From: Candidatus Spyradenecus sp.
Lineage (GTDB): Bacteria > Verrucomicrobiota > Verrucomicrobiia > Opitutales > UBA953
DNA length: 64,000 bases
Assembly: GCA_045535075.1 (NCBI GenBank)
Contig: JAZSKX010000014.1
Coordinates: 211,411 to 275,410, forward strand
Direction: 5' to 3'
The position numbers are program-made. Below, piece by piece: positions 1-64,000 of this stretch (positions are counted from its first letter, which is position 1; every line of letters begins with the position of its first letter).

Positions 1-3000
1 GTTTTAGTTTTACTGAATTTGCTTGGCGAAATTCTTCTCGCAAAAATTAATCCTAAGGCGAAAATCGCTTAGCCCCGAAATAAAAAATAACAATGAAAGC
101 TTTAATCACCGGCGCAAGCGGCGGAATCGGTCGCGAAATCGCAAAAGTGCTCGCAGAGCGCGGCTGTGAGTTGATTTTGTGTTCCCGCGATAAAGCGGCT
201 TTGACCGCGCTTGCGGAAGAACTTCCCGTGCCGTGCAAAGTGGTCGCGACGGATTTATCGGTCGAAGAAAATTGCAGGAAGCTTTATGAGCAAACTCGCA
301 ACGATAATGTGGAAATTCTTGTCAATAACGCCGGATTCGGAGTTTTCGGGGCGTTTGAAAAAACGGATTTGGATGCAGAGTTGGAGCTGATTAATCTGAA
401 CATCCGTGCAGTGCATGTGCTGACGAAGCTTTTTCTGAAAGACTTTCGAAAGCGCTCTGGGGCGTGTTATATCTTAAACGTTTCTTCAATGGCGGGATTT
501 TTTGCCGGACCGCTTTTTTCATCTTACTACGCTTCCAAAAATTACGTGACGCGTCTTTCGGAAGGTATCGCTGAAGAATTGCGGCGGGAACGCGCAAATG
601 TGTCGCTTTCGCTTTTGTGCCCGGGACCGGTTCCGACCGGATTCGGCAAGCGCGCCGGCGTCTCTTTCGGACTCTCGGGAACGCCCGTGCGGTTCGTCGC
701 CGAATCCGCCGTTCGAGGAATGTTTGCCCGCAAGCTTTATATCGTTCCCGGTGTATCCAATAAATTATTACGTTGCCTCGGGGCTGTGTTTACTTCCCGA
801 TTCTGTGCCCGCATCGTTTATTCCCTGCAAAGCGCAAAGAAAATTGTCCGCGGGAACTCTTAGTGCCGTTTATCTGTTTGCGCCCGGCGTTCCCGCGTTT
901 TGTTGCCGTTTATAATGTGACAAAAATGGGACACTAAAAACTTGGCACGGGCTTTGCATTAAACGAAAGCACTATGAGTAAAATTCTTGGAATCGACCTT
1001 GGTACCACCAATTCTTGCATGGCTGTCATGGAAGGCGGCGAACCCGTCGTCATCCCGAACAGCGAAGGCGCGCGCACGACGCCTTCGGTAGTCGCGTTTG
1101 CGAAAAACGGCGAACGCCTCGTCGGCCAGGCGGCAAAACGCCAAGCCGTTACGAACCCGAAAAACACGATCTTTTCGGCAAAACGCCTGATCGGCCGTAA
1201 ATTTGCGGAAGTTCAGGAAGAAATCAAATCGTTCCCGTTCACCGTCGTTGAAGGTAAAAACGGCGACGCCGCAATTCAGGCGGAAGTGAACGGCAAAACG
1301 GAAACTTTCGCGCCGGAACAAATCTCCGCGATGGTGCTCGCAAAAATGAAAGCTGACGCCGAAGCCTATCTCGGCGAAAAAATCACGCAGGCGGTCATCA
1401 CCGTTCCCGCGTATTTTAACGACGCTCAACGCCAAGCCACAAAGGACGCGGGAACGATCGCAGGGCTCGAAGTGCTCCGCATCATCAACGAACCGACCGC
1501 CGCTTCCCTCGCTTACGGTTTGGATAAAAAATCCGACGAAAAAATCGCGGTTTACGACCTCGGCGGCGGAACGTATGACGTTTCCATTCTCGAAATCGGC
1601 GACGGCGTTTTTGAAGTCAAAGCCACCAACGGCGACACTCAACTCGGCGGCGATAATTTCGACGAACGCATCATTTCCTGGCTCGTTGACGGCTTCAAAG
1701 CCGAAAACGGAATCGACCTCCGCAACGACCCGATCGCGCTCCAACGCCTGAAAGAAGAAGCGGAAAAAGCCAAAATCGCGCTTTCGTCCACCAATTCCAC
1801 CGACATCAATCTGCCCTTCATCACGGCGGACGCAACCGGCCCGAAGCACTTGAACGTCCAGCTCACGCGCGCCAAGCTCGAACAGCTTTGCGACGACTTG
1901 CTCGAACGCACCCGCATTCCGTTTGAAAAATGCTTGCGCGACGCCGAGCTTTCCATGAGCGAAATTAACGAGCTCGTTCTCGTCGGCGGTATGACGCGTA
2001 TGCCGAAAGTCGTCGAAGTCGCCCGCAGCCTCGCGGGAAAAGAACCGCACAAGGGCGTGAACCCGGACGAAGTCGTCGCTATCGGCGCTTCCATTCAGGG
2101 CGGCGTGCTCAAGGGTGATGTTCGCGACGTGCTTCTGCTCGACGTTACGCCGCTCACGCTTTCCATCGAAACCGCCGGCGGTGTTTCCACGCCGATGATT
2201 GAACGCAACTCGACGATTCCGACGAAAAAATCCCAGATTTTCTCGACCTACGCGGACAACCAGACCGCCGTCGACATCCGCGTTCTCCAAGGCGAACGCC
2301 CGATGGCGAAGGACAACAAGCAACTCGGGCTTTTCCGCCTCGACGGAATCAATCCCGCGCCGCGCGGCACGCCGCAAATCGAAGTTACCTTCGACATCGA
2401 CGCGAACGGTATTTTGCACGTTTCCGCCATCGACAAAGGCACCGGCAAGAGCCAGGAAATCTCCATCACGGGATCGTCCGGCTTGAGCAAGGACGAAGTT
2501 GAAAAACTCCGCAAGGAAGCCGAACTTCACGCCGCGGAAGACAAAGTCCTTCGCGAAACCGCCGAAGCGCGCAACAAGCTCGACGCCTACGTTTTCCAAA
2601 TCGAAAAGCAAATCAAGGAAGCCGGAGACAAAGTTCCCGCCGAACAAAAAGCGGAAATGGACAAGCTCCTCGCCGACGCGAAGAAAGTGCTCGAAGACAA
2701 ATCTTCCACGCTCGACGCGATTAACGAACAGGTTTCCAAAATCGAAAGCATCATGCAGGCGGCTCAGCAGTTCGCCCAGCAGCAACAGCAAGCCGGCGCG
2801 GGAACGCCTCCGCCGCCCCCGCAGAATGACGCTTCATCCGCCAAGAAAGGCGGCAACGGCGCCGTCGATGCCGACTTCGAAGTCGTCGACGATAAGTAAG
2901 ATAGTGGCTGGTAACCGGGAATTAGTAACCGGAAGTTAGCAACCGATAGCTTCCGATTACCGGCTCCCGGTTCCGAGTTGCCAAAAAAAAAGCGTTCCCG

Positions 3001-63000: not shown

Positions 63001-64000
63001 TCAAACTCAAAAGATATTCGCTCCGGCATAAACGCAGCAGATGTTATTCCAGAATAAAACCCCTTAATTTTTTCCGTAGTTTTTCCCCTTCTCCCCAAGA
63101 AATAGCGACCTAAGATCTCCCCCTCTAATTTTCTAACAGAAATACGCGCCCATCCCCCATTAATTTCCGTGTAACTGGGAACAGGTCCTTTAATTTTTAG
63201 ATACAAGCTATTACATCCTTGAAGTAGATAAGGAAATGAAATTGCCATACTAAAAATCAACAGTCGTTTTATCTTATTTTTGTCTCCGCAAGCAATCATC
63301 TTTAGCCTTTTTCTGAGCATTTTCAAATGCGTTCCCTCCTCCAAGGTGAACTCCCAGGCGGTAACCTTCTCCGATAAATGTGCTTGGGTATTCACCGATG
63401 TCCGCAATGCCAAGGCTCGAAGAAATTTTAGATTTGACGCAAGCACCCAACGCATCGTCACAATTTTTTTTAGACGCGCACAGCGTTTCATAGCAAGTAT
63501 CGTGGTCTTGGCAACACTCTGAAACAGAAGCGATAAAAAATGGTCTGTCGGGAACAATTAATAAAGAGAGTGTTCCTGAACCGCAATGTCCTAAGACAAG
63601 TTCTACTGTTTTTTCGACTAGCCATCGAGTTCCATCCCAGACATACACTATTCCATCAATAACCCGTTTTGCCCCTGCCACAACAAGCTCGCTGACACAC
63701 GTAACTCCATCCCAAACATATCCTGCAGCACAAGAAATGCCTGTTCCTATTCCTGTTGCAACGCATGTAACACCATCCCGAATATTCCCTACGGCACATT
63801 CAAAAAAGTTTTCCTCACATCCCCCCATTAAATCATAGCGAGTATTCGGGTTGTTTCGGACGAAGGCGTAGAGATTGAGGCCGCCTTGTTCGGAGATGGG
63901 GTCGCGGGAGAGGAAGCGACCGAGCGAAGGCGAGTAGTGGCGGAAGTTGTAGTAGACGAGGTTGAGTTCGGAGTCGTAAACTTCCGATGACCATTGGAAG

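Follow-up and report, generated by a model that had tools for sequence, protein, structure and literature searches.

G-CGTTCCCG-Y, a short word repeated across the genome of a Candidatus Spyradenecus species, is on sequence grounds probably (we put the chance at roughly 0.58) a genus-wide tag of self DNA, comparable in function to the DNA uptake sequences known from Neisseriaceae (DUS) and Pasteurellaceae (USS), and the genus may therefore be naturally transformable. The hallmarks that it has in common with DUS and USS are high copy number, lack of strand polarity, use of the reading frames and pairing in terminators, restriction to one clade, conservation and scarcity in acquired DNA.

Abundance, context and distribution of the word

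The core 8-mer CGTTCCCG is present in 5159 copies in the 1.95-Mb genome (2.6 per kb, about 2% of the DNA), with a mean spacing of 378 bp or about one copy per 400 bases, and the 9-mer CGTTCCCGC in 3244 copies (1663 forward, 1581 reverse); the 7-mer occurs 6528 times and the C9T variant of the 9-mer 1266 times. All of these counts, together with the 494 9-mer copies on contig C1, reproduce those of the survey's finding, which had also stated that the top 9-mers of the genome are all shifts of this word. The same was seen for every k from 7 to 12, the most frequent k-mers genome-wide being without exception shifts or extensions of it. Density of the 9-mer is 1.54-1.81 per kb on the nine contigs longer than 90 kb and 0 to 2.26 per kb on smaller contigs, and spacing is Poisson-like (coefficient of variation 1.1) with no unusual evenness. 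The consensus from 5158 genome copies is G-CGTTCCCG-Y-R, 8-11 nt in length, and since information content is close to zero outside positions -1 to +10 there is no wider context. Tolerance of variants is graded, with words changed at positions 1-3 still enriched (up to 10x) and those changed at position 4 or 6-8 at 0.4-1.8x expectation.

In the window, by which we mean the whole stretch of 64,000 nucleotides that was analysed, the 104 copies of the 9-mer (45 on the plus and 59 on the minus strand) compare with 1.50 ± 1.21 expected and a maximum of 7 in 100 dinucleotide shuffles, a 69-fold excess. The enrichment figure varies with the null chosen, from this value through about 75x for the genomic 8-mer against base composition (5159 versus about 69 for a variant of equal G+C count) and 95x for the 9-mer against the reversed word (34 copies), and spans 70-180x across the nulls used; the value of about 200x given earlier for the excess belongs to the upper end of this range.

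All six reading frames are occupied, as had been claimed, with 258-1444 copies in each. The tripeptide AGT was seen 1172 times versus 238 expected and was spelled GCG-GGA-ACG 964 times versus 83 expected from codon use, whilst RSR and RER are spelled in the codons of the word 19 and 12 times too often. The force on the word acts at the DNA level and not at the protein level, and a codon-level origin fails given this distortion of codons and tripeptides in all frames. Around 81% of 8-mers stand singly within called genes. On ORF calls that are crude, 952 of the 5159 lie in the 15% of the DNA without a called gene (3.2 versus 2.5 per kb), a modest non-coding excess; the figures given before, 14.8% of copies in 8% non-coding DNA, were not reproduced with these calls. 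Orientation of the 8-mer relative to GC skew was 2318:2822 (45:55), and 445:502 (47:53) between genes, with no replication polarity. The slight bias, previously noted as a weak one with the replication strand, arises because 59% of the coding DNA is on the leading strand and the word has a 60% antisense preference.

Inverted pairs of the form GTTCCCG-N4-16-CGGGAAC number 171 and are mostly bidirectional terminators, with 146 of them intergenic (mean folding energy -20 kcal/mol), 130 of these 146 no more than 100 nt past a stop and 137 provided with a T- or A-run, in agreement with the earlier view that most such hairpins are terminators. How many are counted varies with the arms required: 39 when two 9-mers are demanded, 171 for 8-mer arms and 213 for 7-mer arms within 20 nt, and the 86 stereotyped hairpins counted previously fall between 39 and 171/213. 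The reverse arrangement is rare (26 versus 171, 8-mer arms). Only 5.2% of the 7-mer copies sit in such pairs. Of the 1391 called genes, 165 have a pair no further than 100 nt from the stop, and the word predicts about 12% of terminators in these genomes. Loops and flanks vary even beside genes that are 98% identical. Four hairpins of the window gave RNA-fold z-scores of -5.7 to -10.1 (Table 1).

Table 1. Positions of the word and of associated features in the window.
Feature	Position	Strand	Description
Dispersed word G-CGTTCCCG-Y-R	1..64000	both	156 8-mers (67 +, 89 -) and 104 9-mers, in genes and spacers
Word-pair hairpin	2994..3019		Between convergent dnaK and Fe-ADH genes; A-run, GCGTTCCCG, 12-nt spacer, CGGGAACGC, T-run; bidirectional terminator; fold -30.1 kcal/mol, z -10.1
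Sulfatase gene	4232..6436	-	11 copies (5.0 per kb); 4232-6341 98.5% identical to a G016 gene in unrelated context, G016 genome otherwise 65-85%
Word-poor stretch	10306..15967	.	One 8-mer (13445) in 5.7 kb; gene of a surface protein with Chlamydia PMP repeats at 13310-15745 (GC 0.44), and 2.7 kb lacking any called gene
ABC-F ATPase and Na+/solute symporter genes	25956..29926	+	96-98% identical to G016, G007 and G010 (ABC-F only), neighbours 66-83%; recent exchange tract
Word-pair hairpin	29951..29976		3' of Na+/solute symporter gene, first of two in convergent spacer; fold -28.8 kcal/mol, z -7.6
Second word-pair hairpin	30023..30049		7-mer arms; same convergent spacer as 29951..29976
Word-pair hairpin	35914..35933		Directly past stop of aconitase-family gene (35957-37402, -); fold -24.2 kcal/mol, z -6.6
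Operon of four pilin-like genes (227, 248, 245, 344 aa)	47690..50984	-	Prepilin N-terminal methylation motif; candidate minor pilins of type IV pilus
Word-pair hairpin	57348..57374		Between convergent genes 55226-57307 (+) and 57380-58420 (-); fold -22 kcal/mol, z -5.7

Enrichment was found in all 18 other genomes of the same genus (340-5581 9-mer copies, the highest count in a sister species of 1.7 Mb) and in none of the 22 genomes outside it, where 0-196 copies are near the reversed-word control, so that the genus specificity proposed before holds in a set made up mostly of metagenome bins in which kin are not independent. A hairpin scan of 185,579 species gave, among the matches listed, several per genome only in Opitutales or Ca. 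Spyradosoma records and in a few records with other titles, four of which were checked and have word counts identical to those of same-genus genomes. The same word is present in 732-760 copies in a word-poor subclade (G001, G002 and G013), and no clear dialects were seen within the genus, only a tighter flank consensus in G018.

Origin, retention and exchange of copies

Judged from aligned sequences, copies of the word arise in place by point substitution. In the ABC-F gene of Table 1, eight alignment columns carry the word in one or more of 13 genus genomes, and these were compared site by site with six outgroup genomes; the outgroups had the word in 0 of 48 cells and near-matches instead, and gains were dispersed over the gene tree, in parallel in several lineages. 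Retention was assessed at arbitrary places in four word-rich species (100 kb each), using the present genome (G000) as reference. At 60-75, 75-85 and 85-95% identity, 122/221, 114/184 and 19/22 copies of G000 were intact in word-rich species, that is 55, 62 and 86%, versus 17, 29 and 51% for 8-mers of the same composition and 7-54% for one-off variants. The word is hence kept 2-3 times better than composition-matched words between these species, a result that was repeated on loci picked by homology. In the word-poor subclade G000 copies were intact no more often than background, in 15/124, 52/273 and 16/59 cases versus 12, 21 and 41%, and the subclade's own copies were 72-96% intact in G000. 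Active preservation of the word in word-rich species is suggested by these comparisons, in which its point origin and retention are newly shown. For the DUS of Neisseria, conservation of 97% versus 85% overall has been reported (PMC2397512).

Word-free gaps longer than 3 kb number 18 versus 1.65 expected. Among the 21 longest (>2.6 kb) are two Mu-like elements, the gene for a 1608-aa helicase, the stretch behind purH and restriction genes of the NgoBV, MmeI and type I kinds, as well as rpoB/rpoC and the S10 operon; the survey's finding had listed places of these kinds among its longest motif-free gaps. The Mu-like elements, whose GC is normal, have 20 copies over 34.3 kb and 5 over 11.5 kb, versus 2.65 per kb genome-wide, and in the restriction and helicase islands the word is missing altogether. 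Mobile DNA is not word-free, however, as prophages and some viral contigs retain 0.4-0.6 per kb, about ten times chance. As a marker the word separates native from acquired DNA in these genomes.

Between species, 82/211 (G016), 30/163 (G010) and 17/174 (G007) of the 300-bp windows were at least 95% identical to G000 over a background of 75-78%, so that the near-identical share of the sampled DNA is 10-39% in these three species. The 21 exchange tracts are gene-sized (0.6-4.9 kb, median 1.9 kb) and hold 3.37, 2.20 and 4.59 words per kb versus 2.20, 1.97 and 1.63 in the diverged parts, a comparison of 21 tracts only with a diverged set that is biased to constrained, word-poor genes (rpoBC). Enrichment of DUS has been reported for conversion fragments in Neisseria (PMC2397512). 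The word-rich G018 shares no recent tract with G000 (0/193 windows); a common word is not sufficient for exchange, and because G018 also shares none, ecology may account for the lack of tracts with the word-poor clade.

Competence genes and rival readings

Genes for ComEC, DprA, ComM, a ComF-like protein, a secretin, two PilB-like ATPases, PilT and seven prepilin-type proteins are present, so that ComEC, DprA, PilB, PilT, the secretin and the seven pilin-like genes of the survey's finding were recovered. Genes for RecJ, RecR and RuvX lie within the window. ComEA, which in other diderms acts as the periplasmic DNA ratchet, had been noted as absent, and an HHH_3 search of the genome again found none: a Tex-like frame of 805 aa gave the only strong match and RuvA a weak one. 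Across the order, just 4 of 41 genomes have HHH_3 frames of ComEA size. ComEC is a short protein of 570 aa with a Competence domain and a weak DUF4131 match, from which the beta-lactamase-like (nuclease) domain is absent. Across the 19 genus genomes, ComEC, DprA and PilT are uninterrupted in all and the secretin is found in 18, and none of the competence genes compared tracks word density, which bears out the earlier remark that density does not track comEC, a gene intact in the low-count genomes too. The four word-poor genomes have 4 ATPases and 11 pilin-like genes, numbers that are if anything higher and equal to those of three word-rich ones, and the pilin operon of the window has its closest counterpart in the word-poor clade (79% over 5 kb). 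Matches to NCBIfam and Pfam are confined to the N-terminal helix of the prepilin-type proteins, and no recognisable ComP-like protein was seen among the pilin-like proteins. In the literature we found no published report of competence or of an uptake sequence in Verrucomicrobiota. The interpretation as an uptake sequence put forward previously is supported in part: the sequence-level hallmarks named at the outset hold, while no ComEA, no nuclease domain in ComEC and no competence gene that tracks density were found.

If the word is an uptake sequence, a retractile type IV pilus would bear a receptor that prefers word-bearing double-stranded DNA and would most likely be one of the seven pilin-like proteins, PilT-driven retraction would pull this DNA through the secretin, ComEC would move one strand into the cell, and DprA, RecA and ComM would recombine the imported strand into the chromosome. 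Because tagged fragments would be imported more often, near-matches would be converted to the word and matches kept, a molecular drive with or without selection. Newcomer DNA such as prophages and restriction islands would begin without the word, and inverted pairs would double as bidirectional terminators, where two copies would be cost-free. We give even odds to the fuller account, in which this would be the first uptake sequence outside the Proteobacteria, selection of tagged DNA by the pilus would drive gene-sized exchange across species, one subclade would have switched off and be losing its tags neutrally, and placing the word on a construct would make these gut bacteria, which are uncultured or hardly cultured, transformable.

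Word statistics show only that the word is read or favoured on DNA, not where, and it could instead mark self DNA for a DNA-binding system inside the cell (in repair, recombination, defence or chromosome organisation), much as HIP1 might. The missing ComEA, a ComEC without nuclease domain, a density tracked by no competence gene and the partial tagging of prophages all agree with such an intracellular reader. HIP1 of cyanobacteria (GCGATCGC) is an octamer palindrome, linked to a cognate methylase and kept by selection; the present word resembles it in being an octamer of comparable density found within genes, but is asymmetric and pairs only in terminators, and an iterated palindrome of the HIP1 type is ruled out on comparing CGTTCCCG with its reverse complement CGGGAACG. 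Moreover, no candidate reader is known, whilst the terminator pairs, the limit to one genus, the gene-sized interspecies tracts and the greater word density of these tracts (in a biased set) are specific predictions of biased uptake. On balance we consider an intracellular reader possible but unlikely.

A sequence-specific bias of mutation or mismatch repair, very-short-patch-like, could make the word from near-matches with no reader function at all, and single-substitution gains in parallel in several lineages, a force felt in all frames and the lack of the word in recently arrived DNA would be expected of it. We nevertheless hold it to be improbable, as deamination-type variants are not depleted (CGTTCTCG 0.98x, CGTTTCCG 1.87x, CGTTCCTG 1.76x, CATTCCCG 3.9x), the C>T and G>A variants of the word standing at 0.97-3.9x expectation, which contradicts very-short-patch repair. 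Known repair biases, to our knowledge, shift word counts a few-fold and not about 100-fold as seen here, and the fixed arrangement of the terminator pairs (171 versus 26) and the higher density in recent exchange tracts (21 tracts, biased set) would be left unexplained. Spread of an arm sequence by copied terminator hairpins or small REP/MITE-like elements, to which the 171 stereotyped hairpins and their presence at 165 of 1391 called genes might point, is very improbable: it is contradicted by the absence of an extended conserved flank (information close to zero beyond -1 to +10), by the predominance of single genic copies (about 81% of 8-mers, with only 5.2% of 7-mers paired), by hairpin loops and flanks that differ beside 98%-identical genes and by the origin of copies in place through substitution. 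A polar chromosome signal such as Chi (RecBCD/AddAB) or KOPS (FtsK) would likewise be a short, over-represented and asymmetric word, and the three recombination genes of the window might suit it, but it is scarcely credible given the strand split of 45:55 against GC skew (47:53 between genes) and a spacing of 378 bp and enrichment of about 75x that are too high, since we know of no Chi or KOPS near either value.

Likeness to known uptake sequences

DUS and USS are described as words of 9-10 nt in hundreds to thousands of copies, making up to about 2% of the chromosome, known from only two proteobacterial families and found as inverted repeats in terminators in the case of DUS (bioRxiv 2025.10.24.684340). 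Like the DUS of Neisseriaceae (GCCGTCTGAA and its dialects, with the minor pilin ComP as receptor), the present word has a similar length and copy number, occurs on both strands and in all frames, forms inverted pairs in terminators, is limited to a clade, is better conserved than background, is scarce in prophages and islands, and may be denser in exchange tracts (21 tracts, biased comparison set). Its sequence is unrelated to DUS, its phylum is another, it is denser (8-mer at 2.6 per kb), and no recognisable ComP-like protein, no ComEA and no clear dialects were found. With the USS of Pasteurellaceae (AAGTGCGGT / ACAAGCGGT; predicted receptor ComN/PpdA) it shares the genomic signature, down to its imprint on peptides and its graded core. 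It has, however, no AT-rich flanking tracts, and no bias towards gene ends was found in this genome, unlike that reported for USS (PMC2346458).

If the uptake reading is true, the word would represent a third independent origin, in another phylum, and self-DNA tagging would be a general solution. Since no relative of ComP or ComN is evident, it would offer a fresh system for receptor discovery, and the word-poor subclade, if switched off, a natural on/off pair for finding that receptor. The same subclade, with the mosaic identity between species, would serve both as a control and to read out real gene flow in the gut, and the word is a candidate handle for DNA delivery into gut Verrucomicrobiota that are now without genetic tools. 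The four adjacent pilin-like genes of the window loosely resemble the com minor-pilin operon of Pasteurellaceae.

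Form and placement of the word

The sequence features of the word (8-mer core CGTTCCCG, 9-mer CGTTCCCGC, 7-mer GTTCCCG) would make it a DNA uptake sequence, a reading to which we give a probability of about 0.58, and at this level it appears to have every property by which such sequences are recognised. The rival that survives best, a reader of the word inside the cell, of unspecified kind, seems to us unlikely. No receptor was recognised for the word, the seven pilins of the genome matching known families by their N-terminal helices only, all under cut-off, which precluded their classification. 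Minor rivals and further readings share the remaining probability, and the word fits the criteria of neither Chi nor KOPS sites, HIP1, repeat elements or repair bias.

In the 64-kb window CGTTCCCGC occurs 104 times, against 1.50 ± 1.21 copies (largest 7) in dinucleotide-preserving shuffles, a 69-fold excess. A recount over the genome of 1,949,087 bases returned the survey's figures of 3244 copies of the 9-mer, 5159 of CGTTCCCG, 6528 of GTTCCCG and 1266 of the C9T variant, and at each k from 7 to 12 the top-ranking k-mers of the whole genome were shifts or extensions of the word. Genome-wide, the 8-mer is approximately 75-fold in excess over base composition and the 9-mer 95-fold over the reversed word; the strong excess described earlier holds under each null, the proposed 'about 200-fold' being itself the top of the range. 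The 9-mer is balanced between strands over the genome (1663:1581) and has a density of 1.54–1.81 per kb on the nine contigs longer than 90 kb.

Alignment of 5158 copies of the 8-mer gave the consensus G (47%), CGTTCCCG, C/T (63/25%), then G/A and seldom T, and since the information outside it drops to zero, save for the three-base rhythm of coding DNA, the word is a bare 8–11 nt sequence and no part of a longer repeat element. One-base variants at positions 1–3 are still enriched (TGTTCCCG 800 copies, CGCTCCCG 857), whilst variants at positions 4 and 6–8 stand at 0.4–1.8 times expectation, so that the critical part is T.CCCG. The C>T and G>A variants show no depletion, which argues against a repair bias of the very-short-patch type.

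By our own crude ORF calls (1391 ORFs, 85% of the genome), genes account for 4204 copies of the 8-mer (2.54 per kb) and the remaining DNA for 952 (3.2 per kb). As had been claimed, all six reading frames are used, unequally, from 258 copies in the rarest to 1143 in the sense frame reading V-P and 1444 in the antisense frame reading (A/T)-G-T. The tripeptide AGT occurs 1172 times against 238 expected (4.9-fold), 964 of these being encoded by GCG-GGA-ACG where codon use predicts 83, and RSR and RER in the word's codons are 19-fold and 12-fold above expectation; the force acts at the DNA level and not at the protein level. No bias towards gene ends or along genes was seen over the called genes. 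Orientation relative to GC skew (45:55) and among intergenic copies (445:502) excludes a polar signal of the Chi or KOPS kind, the small bias being what one would expect when 59% of coding is on the leading strand and antisense copies are preferred at 60%. Local strand imbalance reaches 66:9 per 20 kb because of three giant genes loaded with antisense copies, which are listed in the table of features.

Even spacing was not seen genome-wide (coefficient of variation 1.1, near Poisson), and long word-free gaps are in excess, 18 of them exceeding 3 kb where 1.65 would be expected. By our own arithmetic enrichment is approximately 70-fold in every GC class, with no depletion in low-GC genes beyond composition, and the depletion of islands is therefore visible in long gaps rather than in GC classes. 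Three low-GC genes of the window with few copies are also tabulated.

Locations of features mentioned in the text
Feature	Location	Strand	Remarks
PD-(D/E)XK_3 nuclease gene	window 24758-25207		GC 0.40; 0–1 copies; word-rich neighbours
Globin gene	window 33971-34498		GC 0.43; 0–1 copies; word-rich neighbours
Unannotated 335-aa gene	window 39957-40964		GC 0.42; 0–1 copies; word-rich neighbours
Operon of four of the seven pilin-like genes	window 47690-50984	-	between pseudouridine synthase gene and ruvX
Near-identical tract, sulfatase	window 4232-6341
Near-identical tracts, ABC-F and symporter	window 25956-29926
Mu-like prophage 1	C16:186800-221100
Mu-like prophage 2	C8:20700-32200
Giant gene, 4791 aa	C5:125845-140217		61 antisense, 0 sense copies
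Giant gene, 4270 aa	C8:185333-198142		47 antisense, 0 sense copies
Giant gene, 4026 aa	C9:13798-25875		37 antisense, 1 sense copy

As inverted pairs (GTTCCCG-N4-16-CGGGAAC) the word forms 171 hairpins in the genome with a mean folding energy of -20 kcal/mol, and the mirror arrangement is seldom found (26 vs 171, 8-mer arms). The survey's view of most hairpins as terminators is borne out by the 146 intergenic ones, 137 of which are followed by a T-run or preceded by an A-run (68 show both) and 130 of which have a stop codon within 100 nt upstream; a hairpin lies within 100 nt of the stop at 165 of the 1391 called genes. Four hairpins of the window fold at -22 to -30 kcal/mol (z-scores -5.7 to -10.1), three of them flanked by convergent genes. 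Only 5.2% of 7-mer copies belong to such pairs, and terminators therefore use the word but do not explain it.

Distribution, origin and retention within the genus

Enrichment of the word extends to every one of the 18 other genomes of the genus, 14 holding 3060–5581 copies and the four word-poor ones (G001, G002, G013 and G014) 340–760, whilst 22 genomes of other genera of the same family or order hold 0–196, near the reversed-word control, in agreement with the genus specificity claimed earlier. In a hairpin scan of one genome per species (185,579 species), several hairpins per genome were found, among the matches listed, only in records titled Opitutales or Candidatus Spyradosoma and in a few with unrelated titles. 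Word counts of four oddly titled records were identical to those of four genomes of the genus, and in all likelihood the assemblies are the same and only their labels differ. The hairpin is present in records L122, L131, L135 and L141, titled Enterobacteriaceae, Sphaerochaetaceae or Candidatus Spyradenecus; as their word counts equal those of genomes of the genus, these titles look wrong. In a Kiritimatiellae record the word was no higher than control level.

A separate dialect in the word-poor genomes was rejected on samples of 50–81 kb from each, which use the same word: CGTTCCCG is the first or second 8-mer in three of the four, at 0.5–0.6 per kb, and the G014 sample held no alternative word. 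In the word-rich genome G018 (records L267-L271) the core is preceded by S at -5 (78%), G at -3 (50%) and CG immediately before it (78%, 74%), and followed by C, G and G at 67%, 57% and 44%; this tighter and longer consensus may be a mild dialect.

In order to assess the origin of the copies, the ABC-F gene of the window was aligned with 12 genus and six outgroup orthologues. In eight columns one or more of the genus genomes have the word, and in the outgroups it is found in 0 of the 48 corresponding cells, which show near-matches such as CGTGCCCG or CGCGAACG; the gene tree has several dispersed gains. Copies thus arise in place through repeated point changes, a new result.

Retention was measured by aligning 100 kb, taken from arbitrary places, of each of four word-rich species to the genome under study (G000). 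One-off variants were intact at 7–54% in the same test, and homology-picked loci left the picture unchanged. Conservation above background parallels that of the Neisseria uptake sequence (DUS), for which a passage of PMC2397512 gives 97% conservation against 85% overall.

Retention of G000 copies in four word-rich species
Identity bin	Copies intact	Same-composition 8-mers	All 8-mers
60-75%	122/221	17%	11%
75-85%	114/184	29%	20%
85-95%	19/22	51%	44%

Compared with the word-poor clade (G001, G002 and G013), G000 copies were intact no more often than background, in 15/124, 52/273 and 16/59 cases, against 12, 21 and 41%, whilst the clade's own copies were 96, 73 and 72% intact in G000. Median identity to G000 is 79–81% for this clade and 77–79% for the word-rich species, so that it is no more distant than they are. 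Its copy number is approximately 23% of that of G000, similar to the 20–24% at which random 8-mers survive between them. In our reading the force that maintains the word has stopped or weakened in this lineage; with one gene tree to go by, the other lineages may instead have gained the word late.

Gene exchange and foreign DNA

Identity of G000 to the genomes G016, G010 and G007 is bimodal over a background of 75–78% (records L252-L266), with 82/211, 30/163 and 17/174 of the aligned 300-bp windows respectively (10–39%) at least 95% identical, against 0/193 in the word-rich G018 and 0/134, 0/194 and 1/221 in the word-poor clade. The 21 near-identical tracts are gene-sized (0.6–4.9 kb, median 1.9 kb) and stand in unrelated contexts and flanks, and three of them are genes of the window. 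Such a pattern implies massive recent exchange of single genes between species. Gene-sized replacement across species fits transformation, though other transfer routes may also account for it. The tracts hold 3.37, 2.20 and 4.59 words per kb; diverged matches, a comparison set biased to constrained genes, hold 2.20, 1.97 and 1.63. This enrichment, with that bias, has the same direction as the DUS enrichment of Neisseria conversion fragments described in a passage of PMC2397512.

That the tracts end at special sites was rejected, since diverged matches also end near ORF ends (61/211 within 10 nt, 16/41 for near-identical tracts, 2.6% for random positions); such ends therefore reflect scrambled gene order and are not a property of the tracts. 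Between G000 and eight genomes of the genus gene order is scrambled nearly gene by gene, with only 9–47% of neighbouring matches colinear and only rpoBC and the ribosomal-protein operons syntenic in the genus; whatever their identity class, 29–39% of the matches stop no more than 10 nt from the end of an ORF.

The longest word-free gaps fall within two Mu-like elements, recognised by Gam, MuB-like ATPase, Mu portal, gp27 and terminase genes; further ones lie in a 1608-aa helicase gene (GC 0.43) and in NgoBV, MmeI-type and type I restriction genes. Gaps also occur at rpoB/rpoC and in the S10 operon, which tolerate hardly any change. At normal GC the word density of the two Mu-like elements is 0.58 and 0.43 per kb against 2.65 in the host, and with the gaps at restriction genes this agrees with the thinning in prophages and restriction islands reported by the survey. 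Phages at host word density were rejected: 19 viral contigs holding the hairpin have 0.1–0.63 copies per kb, well under the host's value and over chance. Next to the Mu-type portal gene of the C16 prophage, on its downstream side, is a gene for a 487-aa protein in which an ADP-ribosyltransferase exoenzyme domain scores 32.6 bits.

Competence and pilus genes

The genome encodes ComEC, DprA, ComM, one secretin, seven prepilin-type genes, two PilB-like ATPases and PilT, the ATPase genes being adjacent to one another, and a full-length ComF-like gene scoring under cut-off; of the competence and pilus genes listed by the survey, ComEC, DprA, PilB, PilT, a secretin and the seven pilin-like genes were thus recovered, and so was its lack of ComEA, HHH_3 and TIGR00426 searches of G000 giving only a Tex-like protein and RuvA. 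ComEC (570 aa) has a Competence domain and a weak DUF4131, with no beta-lactamase-like domain in the domain search. Of 41 genomes of the order, only 4 have an HHH_3 frame of ComEA size; ten of the 41, G000 included, have a strong HHH_3 match in a longer frame, Tex-sized (762–960 aa) in nine, and the remaining 29 have no match at E ≤ 1e-6.

Across the genus ComEC, DprA and PilT are uninterrupted in 19/19 genomes, as had been noted for comEC in the low-count ones, and a secretin was found in 18/19. None of the T2SSE ATPases, prepilin motifs, ComEC, DprA or secretin tracks word density among these genomes. The pilin operon of the window, with weak below-cut-off matches to 'Verru_Chthon cassette' proteins B, C and D, was rejected as a tracker, being most similar to that of the word-poor clade (79% identity over 5 kb, against only 63–65%, in pieces, to G016, G007 and G010).

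A literature search for uptake sequences or natural transformation in Verrucomicrobiota, or for k-mer surveys, returned nothing relevant, and on Spyradosoma the titles listed were only those of surveys and name lists. Uptake sequences have so far been described from two proteobacterial families only, according to a passage of bioRxiv 2025.10.24.684340.

Seven of the 19 genus genomes (G001, G002, G013, G014, G018, G004 and G012), G000 not among them, have a second secretin together with a fourth T2SSE ATPase and three to four extra pilin-like genes, probably making up a second pilus or secretion system.
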